DNA of 42,710 bases, from positions 1-42,710 of IMG/VR virus record IMGVR_UViG_2667528074_000004. One strand, given 5' to 3'. Shown here piece by piece: positions 492 to 12,251 of the stretch (positions are counted from its first letter, which is position 1; each line of letters starts with the position of its first letter). The stretch is from a virus (taxonomy: Duplodnaviria; Heunggongvirae; Uroviricota; Caudoviricetes). Both the position numbers and the translations under genes were made by a program. Under the pieces are notes generated by a model that worked only from the letters and a program-made list of their open reading frames with translations, was not told where the DNA came from and ran no database searches.

Positions 492-1283
492 TTAATATCC
501 AATAGCAAAAAAATAAGCGTCAGAAAGATTAGAGTCGGGGCTTGTGCCTGACGTTAAGCAAGTTACGGCATTGAAACCTGTTGCTGTGACTGATTCGCAT
601 GACGTCACAACTTGCGCATAAGTTGCCTTTGTGCAGAAAACACCCCAGATATTCGTCGGGAACGGTGTCGGATAGGTGACAGGGATTGTTGTCGGCATAC
701 CAATTGATGTTGAGTTGGCAAGCCTGCGCCGAAAGACCTGGATAATTAAACCATTGGGAAGTTTAGCTAACAGATTGTCAGAGCCTTTCCCTGTAAGCTG
801 GAAATAACTCATATCAGGTATTTCAAACGATTGAGTATTACCGACATTACGGCCAGATGCTGTACCGAGTTGTAATATTTGATTTATATCATTAGCTTGC
901 TTCACCCAGCCAGTTGTAACTGAGTTAGGATTGGTCGTATTCCCATTGGTGGTGCAGCGATATACTGTTTTAAGATCATCCCCCAACACAAAGGAACCTG
1001 CAGGATAACCACCAATGGCAGTTGCAAATTCCGAATCATAAGTATTCATTGCCCCTGCGCTAAACCATCGGCATAGGGATGATAATTCATACAAAATTTG
1101 GTTCATGTCCTGCCCTCTTGGAGGTAATCCTCCAGCGGATTTCAGGATCATAGTAATTGGTGGGAAACCCAAATCATAAGAAGCGGTATTATCACCGGCT
1201 GGCGTGGTTGTAAGTAATGGCTCTCTCTGCCCATTTACACCAAATGGTTTAGCCTGTTTGGCTGGTGAGTCTGTGCGATTCAT
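492..1283 (-). CDS. Putative tail fibre protein
   Basis: 263-aa Gly/Thr/Ser/Asn-rich ORF immediately upstream of tfa, 3 nt spacing; position equals Mu S / tail fibre. Confidence 0.55.
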   Translation of the reverse strand: MNRTDSPAKQAKPFGVNGQREPLLTTTPAGDNTASYDLGFPPITMILKSAGGLPPRGQDMNQILYELSSLCRWFSAGAMNTYDSEFATAIGGYPAGSFVLGDDLKTVYRCTTNGNTTNPNSVTTGWVKQANDINQILQLGTASGRNVGNTQSFEIPDMSYFQLTGKGSDNLLAKLPNGLIIQVFRRRLANSTSIGMPTTIPVTYPTPFPTNIWGVFCTKATYAQVVTSCESVTATGFNAVTCLTSGTSPDSNLSDAYFFAIGY

Positions 1284-1934: not shown

Positions 1935-3164
1935 CTACGATAATGTAACAGTGATATCTGATTCCTGAATGGTTGGAACCTGGTCTATGCCCATAGTCAC
2001 AGCAGGTCCGTATAGCGAACCATCGAGAGAGACTTCAAGAGACAAAATGCCAACTGTATCAGGAGATATTGAAATAACAGGAGCATAGTATTTACCAGCA
2101 TTTATCGTAGAACCAATTCGTGCCTTTCCAATACCCTCATACCCTCCATTGAATACAGTGGCAACTATTTTCTTTACTTGCTTAGTTATATCACTTGGGG
2201 GGTTTAGTGAGGCATCAATATTTACCTTAAAGTAAACCCGAGTAGGTGATGCCTTTTGCCATTGCATTACGTAAGATGGATATGGTGGCATGTAATTAAC
2301 GTTATCGTAAACAGTGAACGTTGTATCACCATTCATATTGGCTCCGGGGTTATAAGTATTGAATATTGACTCAGCAACATCAGTATCAGCACCGCCATAA
2401 ACACAAATATAAACAGAATGCGCAAGAATCGGGAAATTCGTTGTTCCTTTATTTACTGTTTCTGCAGTTCTGTTTGACCATACGTAAGCATCAAGCACAC
2501 CATCAGTCGCAAGTAACGCGGCTAATGTAGATGCGTCCTGATTTCGACTGTTTCTGGCAACTGATTGTCTCCGGCGAGTTTCAAAGGCGATCCGTGATTC
2601 AACATCAACACCAACGACTCCAGGGCTAGTATTATTTACAGCATCCCACCCGGAAACGGCTCGATAAATCTGGTTCAGTGAACCTGCGGCACACGGAATC
2701 GGCCCGGTTGTTGTGTTGACAAACTGCACATCAACAGAGCCTGATGAGGGTATTACAGCATTATCAATTGACTGATATATATACCCGCTCGTATCCACAG
2801 CGGTACTCCCTGCTGGTATTGTTGTTCCAACCTGACCAATGCATGTTGCTGTAACAACTGTCCCCTGAGCAGCGATCCGCTCCATAAAGTAAATCCGACC
2901 AATCCCGTCCTGGAATCTGCCGGTTGAAAAGTCAGGGTTAATTTGATTAAACAAACAAAGAAGCTTGTCGTATTCCTGAGCGATAATTTCAGTGTCAGAC
3001 TGGGCGATCTGCCCTTGCGGTGAACTCAGTGACTGACTTGCGCCACCGCCAAGGGCCGTTGACATGTCTGTAAGTCTTCCCGCCAATACATCTGCTATAT
3101 CGGGGACTGAAAGACCGTTTTCAGTGATGGTTACATCAGGAACAGCCGTATTTAATGTCGTCAT
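1935..3164 (-). CDS. Baseplate J-like protein
   Basis: 409-aa ORF, synteny with Mu gp47 / baseplate J family. Confidence 0.6.
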   Translation of the reverse strand: MTTLNTAVPDVTITENGLSVPDIADVLAGRLTDMSTALGGGASQSLSSPQGQIAQSDTEIIAQEYDKLLCLFNQINPDFSTGRFQDGIGRIYFMERIAAQGTVVTATCIGQVGTTIPAGSTAVDTSGYIYQSIDNAVIPSSGSVDVQFVNTTTGPIPCAAGSLNQIYRAVSGWDAVNNTSPGVVGVDVESRIAFETRRRQSVARNSRNQDASTLAALLATDGVLDAYVWSNRTAETVNKGTTNFPILAHSVYICVYGGADTDVAESIFNTYNPGANMNGDTTFTVYDNVNYMPPYPSYVMQWQKASPTRVYFKVNIDASLNPPSDITKQVKKIVATVFNGGYEGIGKARIGSTINAGKYYAPVISISPDTVGILSLEVSLDGSLYGPAVTMGIDQVPTIQESDITVTLS

Positions 3165-7453: not shown

Positions 7454-7912
7454 ATGAAATCCAGATTTTTCACAATAGCAATATTTTCTTCCGTTCTTCT
7501 ATCACTCGCAGCTTATGCTGCATCCGACAAAGATAAGGAAAAAATGATGTCTTTAATAAAAGATGCTTCTCCTTATGTTGCAGGCATGGGTAAAAGCATT
7601 GATGAAGTTTGTCAGGATATGGCTAACGACATGGTAAAAAAGTATGGAAATCAACTTAGTGCTATTGGCAAGTCACCGTCAGATATACGAGATTCATCGT
7701 ATGGTATATGCTTTGACGCTGCATCTTCAGCATCATTATCGCAATCCATAGAAGAAGTAAGCATGTGGAAAAATGCAGCAATGCAAAACATTAACGCCAC
7801 ATTCCGAGGCGAGAATGAGCAATCTCCCGCACGAAAATTTCTCGTTGAGACAATTGATCACTCTGAGAAAATGGCAAAAACAATTGCATTCATGCGGGAA
7901 ATTAGTCAATAG
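7454..7912 (+). CDS. Secreted/periplasmic protein of unknown function (signal peptide); opposite-strand moron
   Basis: 152-aa ORF; N-terminus MKSRFFTIAIFSSVLLSLAAYAASDK has the n-h-c pattern of a Sec signal peptide with AYA-A cleavage site; SD aaggggaaag upstream; AT-rich; only plus-strand gene inside the minus-strand tail module. Confidence 0.6.
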   Translation: MKSRFFTIAIFSSVLLSLAAYAASDKDKEKMMSLIKDASPYVAGMGKSIDEVCQDMANDMVKKYGNQLSAIGKSPSDIRDSSYGICFDAASSASLSQSIEEVSMWKNAAMQNINATFRGENEQSPARKFLVETIDHSEKMAKTIAFMREISQ

Positions 7913-7920
7913 CAAATCTG

Positions 7921-9696
7921 CTAAGGCACTGCACTTGAAAATGCCTGATTTACTGATGATCTGCGATTCAACTCCTTAAATCCTTCGGTTAGTTTTGAGG
8001 ATTGATCCGTTTTGGCAATTACCTTTACCTCTCCTATGTGCTGGCTGTTGTAATTGTTAACAACGCTCTGGGCATAGGATTGGTTTGCAGATCCATTAGC
8101 CAATCTTTGCTGGGTTTGGTAGTACGCGGCATTGCTATTTTTCGTTGGGTTACCATAATCAAGACCCCGCTTCCAATCTGGATAACCTTCATGCCTAGCC
8201 ATATAGGCGCTAAGTTTTGCCATAACCTCTGGATCTGAGAGGTTTAGCTTATCATTGGCACCAACGCCCATAGACTTAGAAACCTGGTCAATATACGCCT
8301 TTGTGTTGTTTTCTGAGGATGGTGCCCACTTGCTTATTATCCCTTGCAATGTATCAAGCTTATCTCTTTTGTAGTATAGAGTCAGTTGATTCCTAGCGGC
8401 CTCCCAGCCCTCTTCTGGGTCGAAGTATTGAGCAAATCCGTCCTTGTCTCTTCTTCTGTTTCCAGTAGCTTTAAGATTTAATGGGTTATTGTTTCTGTCA
8501 GGCCTGTTGACACCATTTTTGTTAGGAGGAATCTCTTTATTTGGATCGTCATAATCCATCCCAATGAGCCTTTCCAGCCAATGCTGCTGAAATGCGAATG
8601 GCCGCATCTCATCAGGAACATCTTTATACTGGTCTTGTACCATCTGCCCAAAAATACCAACAGCCCCGATTAATCCCAGCTTGCTTCCTAACCCTTTGCC
8701 GCTAAGAAGAGCCATGGCAGCAAGAATGCCCAATGCGTTTCCAGCGCCACCAACGGCTTTAACAAAACCATCAATACCTGTACTCAGGTTCCTGAAGAAC
8801 CCAACAATGTCACCCTTGTTGTTTTTCAGCCACTCTAAAAACTCCTGTTCTGCTTTAAGCACTTCAGGGCCAAATGTAGCCATTAATTCTTGTTTAACCT
8901 GAGCAAATTGCGAGTCAAGGGCTTTAGTCGTAGCAAGAATATTACGCTGTGCTTCTTCCTGCTCTTTGGTCATCTGCCATCGTTTTTCTTCCTCAGATAC
9001 CATCTGCACAGCTTTTCCGCTTTTAATATCCCCGGCAAGGTTAGGGTCATAACCAAAAGCAGAAAGCACTTGCATTAACTGTTTCTCGTTATGGTTCTTC
9101 CCATATTTCTGAAATTCCGCCAGAGCATCTTCTGATTTACCTCCAAGCTTACTAATATCAATGCCTGTTCTCGCTCCAGTTGTTAGTAAATTCTGAGCCT
9201 CCGGTGTAAGTCCGCCGAAAATTGTTGGGTCTTCTATATTGGCAAGCGCCATCCTGGCGCTCATCTGTGCCCCAAGGAACGCGCCGCCGTTCTGACCAAT
9301 TCGGGAGAATCCATACTGAGTACCAAGAACGTTACTGGCGCTTGTTCCAAGCATTCTCCCCATATTACTGGCTCTTACAATTGACTCCGAAGTACTTTCA
9401 AATGCACGATGAATGCCAATGGCTACGGCAGTCAACACACCGCCAACAGCCACAAAGCGTGTCGAAAGCCCCAAAAAACCATTAAATGAAGCAGTCAACC
9501 CTTTCATTGCAACAGCAGCTTTGTCGGTCTCCTTAGCCGTTTTGGACATCGAGGAGGTTGTTGACCTTTCTATCGCAGATGAAGATCTCTCTATTTCGTT
9601 TTTAAGGTCTTGTGCTTCCTGCTTTACTTTCCGTTTTCCATTCAGGAATTCATCGGCCTTAATTGTGACCTTGTAGGCCAACTCATTGATAATCAT
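7921..9696 (-). CDS. Tail tape measure protein
   Basis: 591-aa ORF directly downstream of the chaperone pair; position and size. Confidence 0.55.
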   Translation of the reverse strand: MIINELAYKVTIKADEFLNGKRKVKQEAQDLKNEIERSSSAIERSTTSSMSKTAKETDKAAVAMKGLTASFNGFLGLSTRFVAVGGVLTAVAIGIHRAFESTSESIVRASNMGRMLGTSASNVLGTQYGFSRIGQNGGAFLGAQMSARMALANIEDPTIFGGLTPEAQNLLTTGARTGIDISKLGGKSEDALAEFQKYGKNHNEKQLMQVLSAFGYDPNLAGDIKSGKAVQMVSEEEKRWQMTKEQEEAQRNILATTKALDSQFAQVKQELMATFGPEVLKAEQEFLEWLKNNKGDIVGFFRNLSTGIDGFVKAVGGAGNALGILAAMALLSGKGLGSKLGLIGAVGIFGQMVQDQYKDVPDEMRPFAFQQHWLERLIGMDYDDPNKEIPPNKNGVNRPDRNNNPLNLKATGNRRRDKDGFAQYFDPEEGWEAARNQLTLYYKRDKLDTLQGIISKWAPSSENNTKAYIDQVSKSMGVGANDKLNLSDPEVMAKLSAYMARHEGYPDWKRGLDYGNPTKNSNAAYYQTQQRLANGSANQSYAQSVVNNYNSQHIGEVKVIAKTDQSSKLTEGFKELNRRSSVNQAFSSAVP

Positions 9697-9911
9697 CGCT
9701 GCTCCTGATGTTTATTCCAGACCCGCTTGTTAAATGATTCCACCGAGATAATTTCCAGAAGGTTATACAGATCACGAACAGATAACCTTTCCTGCAAATC
9801 GGTATAAGTGGCTTTTCCTGAACAGATAATGGCGTTCATTGATGGTGTGACGTTTACGGGGCTAACGAGTTTTGCCGGAAGAGTCTCCTCCTCCATGAAC
9901 GGGTACTTCAC
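9693..9911 (-). CDS. Frameshift extension (GT-like) of tail assembly chaperone
   Basis: 72-aa ORF in the -1 frame relative to 9908-10315, no convincing own start (track start is GTG); reached by -1 slip at 9926-9932. Confidence 0.5.
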   Translation of the reverse strand: MKYPFMEEETLPAKLVSPVNVTPSMNAIICSGKATYTDLQERLSVRDLYNLLEIISVESFNKRVWNKHQEQR

Positions 9912-10315
9912 TCTCCGGCGATCGTTAAAAAATCAAAATTGACTTTAAATACTTTATCCATTACCTGACGAATGGTTGATACCTCTTCAAAGTCGACAGG
10001 CTTCACGGTTCGCACCTGTCTGCTGCCTTCGTGTGTAATCACAATTTGCACAGTTGACATCAGGCGATCACGAAGTTTTCTGGCGACTTCCGGCGATGCA
10101 GCAGAAATAACATTCAGACCAAGGGTGGCAAGGCCAGCACACCCCATGGCAATCACATCAGCAGGAATACCAGAGAATCCCGATTCCCCCATGGAGCGGA
10201 ATAAATCCTGTGCCAGTTCGTCGGCATCCCATGCCGACATCTCTGTGATAATGAACTCTTTCCCATTGTCGCGATTATCGTCTTCCACGATAAAGGGGAT
10301 TTCTTTACGTGCCAT
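9908..10315 (-). CDS. Tail assembly chaperone (G-like)
   Basis: 135-aa acidic ORF between tail tube and tape measure; carries the slippery site near its 3-prime end. Confidence 0.55.
   Translation of the reverse strand: MARKEIPFIVEDDNRDNGKEFIITEMSAWDADELAQDLFRSMGESGFSGIPADVIAMGCAGLATLGLNVISAASPEVARKLRDRLMSTVQIVITHEGSRQVRTVKPVDFEEVSTIRQVMDKVFKVNFDFLTIAGE
9926..9932 (-). other. Programmed -1 ribosomal frameshift slippery heptamer T_TTT_TTA
   Basis: Minus-strand codons GAT TTT TTA ACG (D F L T) of the chaperone, 6 codons before its stop; -1 slip reads TTT TTT AAC GAT CGC CGG AGA GTG AAG TAC CCG = FFNDRRRVKYP, in frame with ORF 9693-9911. Confidence 0.6.
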
Positions 10316-10749
10316 CAGATAGTGCTCCGTGTTACAGACTCAAAGTGAAATACTGCCGGGCGTGGTTGCAGTACGCGCCGACCCGGAGGGGTTGGAGTCC
10401 ATGTATAAAGAACCCCGTTCACAAAATTCCACTTCGCGCCGAGAGCTGGAACTGTAAGCACCGCATTACACTGAAACGCTGAAATTGCAGTTCTCTCCGC
10501 TGCATACCAGTCATCAATCAGCGAGCCAGCATTGGATGTTGGCATCAGGTTGATGGTGAACTCTGTCGGGTTAAAGATAAAACCAGCATGGTATTTACCG
10601 TCCGCTGACATCATGTCTTCTTTGTTCTGTAACGCACCAGTTTCAAACATGTTATCAGCTGCGTAGTCGTCAACATCAAAACCGCCAGGGTAGTAAGCGG
10701 GCACGACGATTCGCAGCTTACTGTTTGCCGAGGTAATATCGATAGGCAT
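10315..10749 (-). CDS. Tail tube protein
   Basis: 144-aa ORF immediately downstream of sheath gene; synteny sheath-tube-chaperone-tape measure. Confidence 0.55.
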   Translation of the reverse strand: MPIDITSANSKLRIVVPAYYPGGFDVDDYAADNMFETGALQNKEDMMSADGKYHAGFIFNPTEFTINLMPTSNAGSLIDDWYAAERTAISAFQCNAVLTVPALGAKWNFVNGVLYTWTPTPPGRRVLQPRPAVFHFESVTRSTI

Positions 10750-10760
10750 GATTTATTCCC

Positions 10761-12251
10761 TTATAAAATCGCGGTTGAGGACATTGTGATGGACTGGATT
10801 AACTGACCATCGACATAATAGAAAATGACACCTTTCAGGTCTCGTTCAATGCGTGCAGAGCCTGACTGTGTCGGGATGTACAGGAACCAGCCCTGTGAAT
10901 ACAGCGTCGATGAGATATCTTTTCCAACTGTGTTATTCACAATTCTGGTTTGCGCATTATCAAGTTTCACGCCACGCTGAATAGCCCCGAAATTGAGAGC
11001 CTGTTCAGCAACATCAATAACAGCGGCAGACACTGCGCCGTATCCTGTCTCATTGAACGGGTACGACTGGTTATTGGTGAACAGGTTGGCAAAAGCACTA
11101 ACCAGATTGGCATTAATCCATACCTGATTAATAAAACTGTCCAGCCATACAAACTTGCCAGTAATGGCACCATCAGATGCGTACTGCGCCATTGTTTTGT
11201 TCAGGCTGTATGAGCCGTAGAAGTTGTAACCGTTTGACTTCAGTGCCTGAGCGGTCGCCAGATCGCTTACGTTGGGTGCTAACCCTGAAAATCCACGGAA
11301 CTTGAACGAGATACGCCCATTGGTGCGTGCAAAATCCACGGATGCAGCATATGCCAGTGCTGTGACGCTATACAGGTATGTTCCGTACACCGGAAAAATG
11401 TTCTCGTAGCCATTTGCCACAACCACTTTCTGCACAAAGCAATTGGCATTATTGGCTACCGTTCCTGCTGAAGTGGTGTCGTGAACAACATATCCAAACC
11501 GGTTTTTACTGCTGCTTGCCCATGCGCACAATTCTGTTTTCTGGTCATCGGTCAGTTCGACCAGCGAGTTAAACAGGATCCAGTTCTGGTTGACGTTGAT
11601 GATGTTGTTCATCGTGTCTGTCAGAGTTACCGCATCAGAACCCGGTGATACAATCGCTGCGGAATCCTGCGTCAGTAATAACCCGGCAGCCAGAGCACCA
11701 GCAGAGGCATAAGACACTTCACTCTCTGCGCCAGTAGTGGCAGAGCGAATGATGAATCGGTTAGCGATTGGCAACCATTCAACCACCACCTTGCTTGCAC
11801 CAATTCCAACCTGCAACTTGGACGCAATGTCACTAAAACTTGTGGCTGTGGACAAATCAATTGATGTGCTGGTAGTCGACTCACCGTCAATGGAAAGGGT
11901 GATTGTGCCTGCTGGTATTGCTTTCAGTGTCGCCAGGGTAACACCTTTCAGGTTGCCGGACAGAAGGTACCCAGCCACTGGTGAAGTAACAATACGATAC
12001 ATCAGCAGTTCACCTGGAATAACAGATGAGTTTTCGTATCCGTTAAAATACTGTTGTGCTGCGAGGAATTCTTTCGATTCACTCCCCATCAAAGCTGATA
12101 CATCAGATGAGGAGTAATAAGATTGTACCGCGCCAACCGGGATAAGCTCGTTATCGGTCAACATCAGGCCGTTAGCATCAACCGCAGAACCGGCAGGCGT
12201 AACGACATTGGGCGTGATATTAAAATCTACAGATAAAGGAATTGTGCTCAT
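10761..12251 (-). CDS. Contractile tail sheath protein
   Basis: 496-aa ORF, size and position typical of myovirus sheath. Confidence 0.65.
   Translation of the reverse strand: MSTIPLSVDFNITPNVVTPAGSAVDANGLMLTDNELIPVGAVQSYYSSSDVSALMGSESKEFLAAQQYFNGYENSSVIPGELLMYRIVTSPVAGYLLSGNLKGVTLATLKAIPAGTITLSIDGESTTSTSIDLSTATSFSDIASKLQVGIGASKVVVEWLPIANRFIIRSATTGAESEVSYASAGALAAGLLLTQDSAAIVSPGSDAVTLTDTMNNIINVNQNWILFNSLVELTDDQKTELCAWASSSKNRFGYVVHDTTSAGTVANNANCFVQKVVVANGYENIFPVYGTYLYSVTALAYAASVDFARTNGRISFKFRGFSGLAPNVSDLATAQALKSNGYNFYGSYSLNKTMAQYASDGAITGKFVWLDSFINQVWINANLVSAFANLFTNNQSYPFNETGYGAVSAAVIDVAEQALNFGAIQRGVKLDNAQTRIVNNTVGKDISSTLYSQGWFLYIPTQSGSARIERDLKGVIFYYVDGQLIQSITMSSTAIL

Follow-up and report, generated by a model that had tools for sequence, protein, structure and literature searches.

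The window analysed here, i.e., the whole 42,710-nucleotide stretch of IMG/VR record IMGVR_UViG_2667528074_000004, very probably (about 90% in our estimate) encodes a programmed -1 ribosomal frameshift, predicted from sequence to yield a 135-aa tail assembly chaperone and a 207-aa fusion protein. The locus belongs to an E. coli prophage that is GF-2-like (Gofduovirus-related), and its layout is of the ordinary lambda G/GT type. Its features are collected in Table 1.

Table 1. Coordinates of the frameshift locus and the neighbouring tail genes in the window.
Feature	Position	Strand	Remarks
Tail sheath gene (496 aa)	10761..12251	minus	PF11863 DUF3383, E 4e-107; phrog_205 tail sheath, E 4e-103
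Tail tube gene (144 aa)	10315..10749	minus	PF22764 E217_Gp32, E 5.5e-17
Zero-frame tail assembly chaperone ORF (G-like, 135 aa, ATG start)	9908..10315	minus	Includes TGA stop at 9910..9908
Slippery heptamer T_TTT_TTA, X_XXY_YYZ phase (gaT TTT TTA)	9926..9932	minus	Phe129-Leu130 codons
-1 frame extension (T-like domain), 77 codons	9693..9926	minus	From AAC (9926..9924) to TGA (9695..9693)
Possible stimulatory hairpin	9874..9919	minus	GCCGGAGAGU (9919..9910) pairs with ACUCU-U-CCGGC (9884..9874)
Tape-measure-like / lytic tail protein gene (591 aa)	7921..9696	minus	phrog_873; phrog_2013 lytic tail protein; phrog_2276 tape measure

The chaperone ORF ends with ...VFKVNFDFLTIAGE*, and the TTA codon of the heptamer lies six codons 5' of its TGA; the coordinates given for the ORF and the heptamer in the initial annotation, as well as the distance to the stop, are all correct. 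The -1 frame opens exactly at the heptamer, with an in-frame TGA directly upstream, and its translation from there reads FFNDRRRVKYPFMEEE... up to a TGA that overlaps the ATG (9696) of the downstream 591-aa gene as ATGA. The predicted product of a -1 slip is a fusion of 207 aa (130 + 77). The 72-aa ORF (9693..9911, listed with a GTG start) had been named rightly, and in the right frame, as the continuation after the slip, while the junction "FFN" proposed with it is a conceptual reading and the real predicted junction is DFL-NDRRR or DFF-NDRRR. In-phase heptamers occur by chance at 0.0039 per codon in the window ORFs of at least 100 aa, and the chance of any heptamer falling within the 8-codon overlap is around 3%. 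One sequence would for that reason be suggestive at best, and the case rests on conservation across relatives.

The gene order is that of a contractile tail module: sheath, tube, chaperone, -1 ORF, and tape-measure-like lytic tail protein, the stop of the tube gene overlapping the chaperone start. The placement between tube and tape measure, which the initial annotation had compared with the lambda layout, is borne out by the PF22764 tube gene on the 5' side and the phrog_2276/phrog_2013 gene on the 3' side. E217 gp32, the namesake of the former family, is the tail tube protein in a cryo-EM structure, and the RefSeq label "phage tail fiber protein" on this gene looks like a misnomer; in near-identical prophages RefSeq calls the 591-aa gene product a "transglycosylase SLT domain-containing protein". 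The chaperone matches phrog_1932 "tail assembly chaperone" over its full length (E 1.1e-51), and its score against PF21822 Phage_TAC_15 is 20.2 bits, just below the 22-bit cut-off. PF21822 matches at E<=0.01 were obtained for 4 of 13 members of the chaperone family (best E 2.1e-5), and a metagenomic homologue, P0023, bears a precomputed match to it. The -1 extension matches phrog_3976 (E 1e-15). An AlphaFold2 model of P0023, in which the two parts are fused, was of too low confidence (pLDDT 65, pTM 0.50) to support a TAC fold, and a Foldseek comparison of this model with the PDB gave no match at E<=0.001. Sequence searches of the PDB with the tube protein and the fusion returned nothing meaningful.

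Relatives were sought at the protein level because megablast against phages gave only a single weak DNA match. The set of close relatives comprises 66 related loci from IMG/VR, Edwardsiella phages GF-2 and Edno5, and Vibrio phage IKEMa6-1, corresponding to 59 distinct sequences with G proteins 66–100% identical. The heptamer T_TTT_TT(A/G) occurs in phase and at the same place in 59/59 distinct sequences, and a -1 ORF continues for about 72 codons past the G stop in all 66 loci. Lack of in-frame conservation of the downstream ORF, named beforehand as the result that would speak against frameshifting, was not observed, as ORF and heptamer are kept in every close relative examined. Among isolated phages the two-frame arrangement spans at least five genera, and it recurs in 20 complete genomes of E. 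coli. The codon 5' of the heptamer varies (GAT, AAT, TCT, AGT or GGT, encoding D, N, S or G) but ends with T in all 59 sequences, and within the heptamer the Phe codon TTT is never TTC and the Leu codon never CTN; at the level of sequence comparison, there is nucleotide-level constraint on the slip site. The zero-frame stop follows a few codons past the heptamer in the large majority of relatives and lies further downstream in a few. Pairwise differences in the -1 ORF are distributed 26/16/58% over codon positions 1/2/3, indicating that it evolves as coding sequence and that purifying selection acts on its own reading frame.

Counterparts in Gofduovirus (Edwardsiella GF-2, Edno5), Popoffvirus (Aeromonas vB_AsaM-56), Acinetobacter phiAC-1, and Burkholderia PE067 share with the window a homologous chaperone followed by a -1 ORF and the same conserved Phe codon, but differ in their lineage-specific heptamers (G_GGT_TTT, T_TTT_TTC). 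Among six distant relatives, five (25–36% identity; phages of Burkholderia, Aeromonas, Acinetobacter, Pseudomonas, and Acetobacter) have an in-phase heptamer (G_GGT_TTT, T_TTT_TTC or T_TTT_TTA) at this Phe codon, within a homologous h-x-F motif and followed by a homologous -1 ORF; the sixth, from Klebsiella phage KP12, offers no more than T_TTT_G there. In other homologues the two parts form a single ORF. Ralstonia phage PQ43W gp47 (E 2e-12) and the proteins of phrog_18181 and phrog_4774 are collinear across the junction, and the 210-aa P0023 is read in one uninterrupted frame (...NFSFFFNRRRV...). A second "tail assembly chaperone" gene beside PQ43W gp47 was considered as a short-form paralogue and rejected, as it shows no similarity.

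Three other explanations of the two-frame layout were weighed, none of which we consider probable. The one that survives best, at long odds nonetheless, holds that the downstream ORF is an independent small gene of 72 or 67 aa and that the heptamer is incidental. Its start would be either the GTG at 9911, which overlaps the TGA stop of G as GTGA and could act by termination-reinitiation, or the ATG at 9896, five codons beyond, used by RefSeq/PGAP. Indeed, a hypothetical protein is called separately here by PGAP and by other gene finders; however, the starts they choose are inconsistent among records (products of 48–73 aa), and neither candidate is conserved. The GTG is present in 18/59 distinct sequences and replaced by GTA or GTC in the other 41, the ATG is present in 30/59 and replaced by CTT, CTC, ATC, ATT, TTA, ATA or TTC in the other 29, and 13/59 lack any ATG, GTG or TTG within the first 40 codons. 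The earlier remark that the 72-aa ORF has no convincing start thus holds, and, judged by these alignments, the -1 ORF is without a conserved independent start. In the window, GGAG is found 1 nt upstream of the GTG and 16 nt upstream of the ATG, so neither has usable Shine-Dalgarno spacing. Moreover, peptide conservation (R-x-R-V...P-F) begins at the junction, upstream of all candidate starts, and the fused homologues PQ43W gp47, phrog_18181, and phrog_4774 also speak against a separate gene.

Transcriptional slippage, in which RNA polymerase would add or drop a U at the T6 run in some of the transcripts, is less probable still. In its favour, the site consists of six T in a row, P0023 is read in one frame as though the length of its T run differed, and polymerase slippage is a real alternative route in other systems (Atkins review). 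P0023 may, however, reflect a homopolymer sequencing error, and at the same position relatives carry G_GGT_TTT, with only three G and four T; tandem tRNA re-pairing therefore fits, while polymerase slippage does not. What is conserved is the codon phase of X_XXY_YYZ and not the length of the run. Productive transcriptional slippage generally needs about 8–9 or more A/T, which counts against it here. Least probable of all is decay or mis-sequencing, by which a 1-nt indel in the T run would have broken up a chaperone ORF that was once continuous: single-ORF homologues (PQ43W gp47, P0023) are known, but independent assemblies would not repeat one error across all 59 sequences, the phage genera, and the complete E. 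coli genomes mentioned above, and a pseudogene would not hold both frames under selection.

Under programmed frameshifting, the majority of ribosomes would stay in the zero frame and stop at the TGA to give the 135-aa chaperone. A minority would slip by -1 at U_UUU_UUA while the P site holds tRNA-Phe paired to UUU and the A site holds tRNA-Leu paired to UUA; in another version, tRNA-Phe might slip by itself while the A site is empty and the rare UUA codon is waiting. The slipped ribosomes would translate 77 more codons into the 207-aa fusion, with the junction ...NFDF(L/F)-NDRRRVKYPF..., where ...DFL-NDRRR is the outcome expected from tandem slippage, and ...DFF-NDRRR that expected from slipping in the P site while the A site is empty. 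E. coli ribosomes have been proven to shift by -1 at U_UUU_UUA, and frameshifting of the G/GT type is conserved among long-tailed dsDNA phages (Atkins review). According to the same review, this heptamer is far less prone to shifting in E. coli than A_AAA_AAG, so the efficiency of slipping may be low. If the two forms act as lambda gpG/gpGT do, the N-terminal part common to both would coat the tape-measure protein, the C-terminal domain present only in the frameshift product would recruit the tail tube protein, and the slip frequency would set a fixed, low ratio of long to short form. The G part would in this way bind the tape measure and the T part the tube protein, and both forms would be absent from virions. 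We infer the slippage itself, its efficiency, the role of the hairpin described below, and the binding partners of both domains. Indirect support for the making of both proteins comes from the purifying selection on the -1 frame and from the fused homologues.

The hairpin starts after a 6-nt spacer (9925..9920) and consists of 10 bp with one bulge, the G stop codon being located inside it. RNAfold gave -18.8 kcal/mol for a 55-nt segment, and within the structural module just 2% of the positions in register fold as well. Compared with shuffled versions of its own sequence, the structure was not significant (z -0.65 to -0.9 for 66–88-nt stretches). Of 32 distinct relatives, 25 have the hairpin, and these include one A-U to G-C change and an altered GGCGGCG/CGCCGC version; since the arms are themselves coding, this covariation could be incidental. 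The hairpin was not found in the GF-2 clade, RNAalifold of the window with GF-2, Edno5, and IKEMa6-1 detected no shared downstream structure (-3 kcal/mol), and Rfam contained no family matching within 9500..10500 at E<=1. A stimulatory role, with the hairpin raising the slip frequency in the clade of the window, is possible, a grade chosen because the element was seen only with the wider set of relatives and the positional background.

The closest functional parallel is the gpG/gpGT pair of lambda (Levin et al. 1993; Xu et al. 2004, 2013, 2014, as summarised in PMC5009743). Both systems have the gene directly 5' of the tape-measure gene, a heptamer within a few codons of the stop, and a -1 shift appending a C-terminal domain from an ORF without a conserved start; a long form of low frequency would be a further likeness and is expected in the present phage. 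In contrast to lambda, the heptamer is T_TTT_TTA and not G_GGA_AAG, a downstream hairpin may contribute, the phage is a myovirus with a contractile tail (its sheath and tube genes lie upstream), and its chaperone has no detectable sequence similarity to lambda G/T. In tail type, the locus resembles that of P2 gpE/gpE+E' and of Mu-type phages, with sheath, tube, -1 frameshifted chaperone, and tape measure, although the chaperones belong to different protein families (here phrog_1932 / PF21822-like). The P2 proteins have about 91 and 142 aa, as compared to 135 and 207 aa here. The frameshift efficiency in P2 is 2–3 fold above that of lambda (Atkins review). The signal itself is of the HIV-1 gag-pol kind, with an identical heptamer U_UUU_UUA, a short spacer, and then a stem-loop; the HIV-1 signal functions on E. 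coli ribosomes, giving around 80% Phe-Leu and 20% Phe-Phe junctions, a ratio that changes when tRNA-Leu(UAA) is over- or under-expressed. The genes and the biology are nevertheless unrelated, and the phage hairpin differs in sequence and is not universal in its family.

A wider reading, to which we give slightly less than an even chance, is that throughout the phrog_1932 family of gamma-, beta-, and alpha-proteobacterial myoviruses the frameshift has stayed anchored on one conserved Phe codon, while lineages swapped heptamers (T_TTT_TTA, T_TTT_TTC, G_GGT_TTT, T_TTT_G), acquired or lost a hairpin (at a fixed spacer of about 6 nt, its sequence unrelated from lineage to lineage), and in some cases (Ralstonia PQ43W, phrog_18181/4774) fused the frames. 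If true, the family would constitute a natural series for the co-evolution of slip-site strength, stimulator, and G:GT ratio, as well as for how a phage copes with the long form alone. The natural variation in heptamer and hairpin, together with the fused forms, could make the family useful for studies of frameshift efficiency. The locus also adds a bacterial-virus case of the HIV-type U_UUU_UUA heptamer. The understanding of tail assembly is unchanged, as the -1 trick is well known in tailed phages, and the main value lies in the annotation, which should show a single joined CDS carrying a ribosomal slippage site. In the literature on GF-2 or Edno5, we found no paper mentioning a frameshift. 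RefSeq does not annotate it either and lists two "hypothetical" genes instead. The records of the GF-2, Edno5, vB_AsaM-56, phiAC-1, and PE067 counterparts hold two separate genes or the first alone, and across RefSeq (GF-2, Edno5, vB_AsaM-56, and phiAC-1; prophages of E. coli, Citrobacter, Cronobacter, Salmonella, and Yersinia) the chaperone is accompanied by an orphan "hypothetical protein" whose start varies by record.

The chaperone locus is an unannotated member of the well-known G/GT-type frameshifts, and we estimate the probability that it is a genuine programmed -1 frameshift, as judged from comparative evidence, at about 0.9. It combines the genomic hallmarks of this type, i.e., the position, a -1 overlap whose second ORF lacks a conserved start, and a slippery site that relatives keep in phase. 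Such frameshifts are described as conserved in long-tailed dsDNA phages by Xu et al. 2004, as cited in PMC5009743 and PMC10274946. The order of sheath, tube, chaperone, -1 ORF, and tape measure corresponds to the lambda arrangement in its myovirus form, a layout common to P2 (E/E+E') and the window locus, and the Pfam and PHROG matches support the lambda G/GT-like placement between tail tube and tape measure proposed in the initial annotation. The chaperone matched Pfam Phage_TAC_15 weakly (20.2 bits; cut-off 22), a model matched by 4 of 13 diverse members of the chaperone family. Fold-level confirmation failed, as no confident structure model was obtained. The tube protein carries the RefSeq label 'phage tail fiber protein', and Pfam gives PF22764 the description 'Tail fiber protein gp32'; this wording appears to be a propagated misnomer, because the cryo-EM structure of Pseudomonas phage E217 (PMC10329688) identifies Gp32 as its tail tube protein.

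Features of the chaperone locus and of other sites in the window
Feature	Position	Strand	Remarks
Tail sheath, 496 aa	upstream of chaperone		PF11863 DUF3383, E 4e-107; phrog_205
Tail tube, 144 aa	10315..10749	minus	PF22764 'E217_Gp32' match
Chaperone, 135 aa	10315..9908	minus	ATG start; phrog_1932 'tail assembly chaperone', full length, E 1.1e-51
Heptamer TTTTTTA	9932..9926	minus	phase gaT TTT TTA = X_XXY_YYZ
Possible hairpin, 5' arm	9919..9910		GCCGGAGAGU; 6 nt past heptamer
Possible hairpin, 3' arm	9884..9874		ACUCU-U-CCGGC
Closing TGA of -1 ORF	9695..9693	minus	overlaps next gene's ATG as ATGA
591-aa gene	ATG 9696, downstream of -1 ORF	minus	matches lytic tail protein and tape-measure PHROGs
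Baseplate, tail-fibre, fibre-assembly genes	after 591-aa tape-measure-like gene
152-aa ORF	7454..7912	plus	between tape-measure-like gene and baseplate genes
Tail fibre gene, 263 aa	1283..492	minus
T_TTT_TTT	507..513	minus	in phase, near end of tail fibre gene
Tail fibre assembly gene, 162 aa	ATG 489

The sequence of the window proved to be as first described with respect to the ORF, the heptamer, its phase, and the distance to the stop. The zero-frame ORF ends ...VFKVNFDFLTIAGE-TGA, with Phe129 of the heptamer in the P site and Leu130 (TTA) in the A site, six codons before this stop. A TGA lies directly 5' of the heptamer in the -1 frame, which therefore opens exactly at the slip site and runs for 79 conceptual codons (FFNDRRRVKYPFMEEE...EQR). 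Tandem slippage would yield a 207-aa product composed of 130 zero-frame residues and 77 from the -1 frame. Within window ORFs of at least 100 aa, the frequency of in-phase X_XXY_YYZ heptamers is 0.0039 per codon (59 in 15,139 codons), and the chance of finding any of them within the 8-codon overlap is roughly 3%. Taken singly, the site is thus suggestive, and the decision rests on the relatives.

The comparison encompassed 66 related loci (62 of the 64 loci that the chaperone retrieved from IMG/VR, at 66–100% identity, three phages, and the window), representing 59 distinct sequences. In every one of the 59, TTTTTT(A/G) occurs correctly phased at this site, together with a -1 ORF reaching about 72 codons past the zero-frame stop; the downstream ORF, whose loss of frame among relatives would have spoken against the frameshift, is kept along with the heptamer throughout. 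The codon 5' of the heptamer is GAT, AAT, TCT, AGT, or GGT, encoding four amino acids but always ending in T, while Phe is invariably TTT and Leu is TTA in 58 sequences, TTG in one, and never CTN. The constraint at the slip site, as read from these codons, is on nucleotides and not on amino acids alone. Past the overlap, pairwise differences fall at -1-frame positions 1, 2, and 3 in proportions of 26%, 16%, and 58%, in this alignment the pattern of translated sequence under purifying selection. Independent initiation of the -1 ORF, for which the initial annotation had seen no convincing start, finds little in the relatives to build on, as neither candidate start of the window is conserved: 41/59 have GTA or GTC in place of the GTG at 9911, which overlaps the stop as GTGA, 29/59 have a non-start codon in place of the ATG at 9896, and ATG, GTG, or TTG is missing from the first 40 codons in 13/59. 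Moreover, peptide conservation starts at the junction (F-F-x-x-R-x-R-V-x-x-P-F), 5' of any possible start.

In each of the six distant phages examined (25–36% identity), the -1 ORF has a homologue that shares the motif A-T-(L/Y)-x-E-L-x-T-(V/I)-x-x-x-D-x-x-x-L-L-E. Five of them have an in-phase heptamer at the conserved h-x-F position of the chaperone: G_GGT_TTT in Burkholderia PE067 and Aeromonas vB_AsaM-56, T_TTT_TTA in Acinetobacter phiAC-1, T_TTT_TTC in Pseudomonas Amjad_SA, and overlapping G_GGT_TTT and T_TTT_TTA in Acetobacter phiAO1. The sixth, Klebsiella phage KP12, has only GCT_TTT_GTA (T_TTT_G; locus L069, about 2940..2950) and no full heptamer, and may shift via P-site slippage alone. 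Homologues fused in a single frame were also found. Gp47 of Ralstonia phage PQ43W (locus L070, 1738..2313), a 191-aa ORF with no frameshift, is collinear with residues 58–207 of the predicted fusion straight across the junction (E 2e-12), as are phrog_18181 (residues 76–196) and phrog_4774 (residues 112–203), families of 170–177-aa proteins. A 210-aa ENA metagenome protein (P0023), 52% identical to the predicted fusion over its full length, has ...NFSFFFNRRRV... where the slip would occur; the frames are either fused naturally in this protein, or sequencing may have misread the homopolymer length of the T run. Taken together, the distant -1 ORFs and sites and the fused homologues show, on comparative grounds, that both parts are portions of a single polypeptide. 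In PQ43W, the gp47 gene is closely followed by a gene for a 134-aa protein labelled 'tail assembly chaperone' and by the tape-measure gene, and no similarity was found between gp47 and the 134-aa protein.

U_UUU_UUA is the HIV-1 gag-pol heptamer, with overall efficiency and Phe-Leu:Phe-Phe ratio similar in E. coli and mammalian cells. Either tRNA-Phe and tRNA-Leu shift together during translocation, giving Phe-Leu (about 80%), or tRNA-Phe slips in the P site with the UUA codon unoccupied, giving Phe-Phe, the balance being set by tRNA-Leu(UAA) abundance (PMC6547452, PMC5009743). In E. coli this heptamer is far less shift-prone than A_AAA_AAG (PMC5009743), in keeping with a chaperone that requires little of its long form; the lambda G:GT ratio is about 30:1 (PMC5009743). 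By analogy with lambda (PMC5009743), binding of the tape-measure protein would fall to the N-terminal part shared by both forms, and recruitment of the tube protein to the domain encoded in the -1 frame. Transcriptional slippage is an unlikely source of the frame change, since relatives use G_GGT_TTT, without a long homopolymer, and the conserved property is codon phase.

A downstream hairpin of 10 bp with one bulge was predicted; its 55-nt segment (-18.8 kcal/mol) was equalled at only 2% of 4,317 in-register positions of the structural module. Among 32 distinct relatives, 25 have a hairpin predicted at this place, with one A-U pair replaced by G-C in the GAAGGG/CCCUUC subgroup and a GGCGGCG/CGCCGC version in one locus (L056), and GC-rich stems start 5–7 nt past the heptamer in PE067, AsaM-56, phiAO1, and Amjad_SA. 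Folding of the downstream stretch revealed no hairpin in the GF-2/Edno5/IKEMa6-1 clade, phiAC-1, or KP12. Because of these missing clades, weak z-scores against shuffled sequence, the location of both arms within coding sequence, and the readiness with which GC-rich genomes fold, the hairpin is plausible as a lineage-specific enhancer and not an established part of the signal.

The main value of the locus lies in annotation; the HIV-type heptamer, the variable hairpin, and the fused homologues add modestly to it. Records of the nearest relatives carry no frameshift annotation and pair the chaperone with a 'hypothetical protein' of 48 aa or 67 aa. Gene calls for the -1 ORF across a large protein collection give 48, 58, 65–67, or 71–73 aa, always 'hypothetical', an inconsistency expected for an ORF without a real start. 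The chaperone is 97–98% identical to E. coli proteins and 75–85% identical to those of Citrobacter, Cronobacter, Salmonella, Yersinia, Enterobacter, Pectobacterium, and Dickeya. Of the complete E. coli genomes, 5,426 in number, 20 carry the DNA on the chromosome. The nearest isolated phages, Edwardsiella GF-2 and Edno5 (genus Gofduovirus) and Vibrio IKEMa6-1, show 60–65% identity over the fusion. Lifestyle may differ within the group, since the E. coli relatives (27 places) are all chromosomal, none on plasmids, whereas Edno5 has a 'partition protein ATPase' gene annotated near the tail module (locus L001, 5400..5629).

The sole other site of the chaperone type in the window, T_TTT_TTT, lies six codons ahead of the tail fibre gene's stop, and the -1 frame is open from it into the tail fibre assembly gene. 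It is probably due to chance, because the latter gene starts from an ATG of its own and only 8 codons separate the two in the open frame. The opposite-strand 152-aa ORF gave no PHROG match; a near-identical E. coli prophage has a RefSeq opposite-strand hypothetical gene at this place, and the ORF may be a moron or cargo gene within the tail module.
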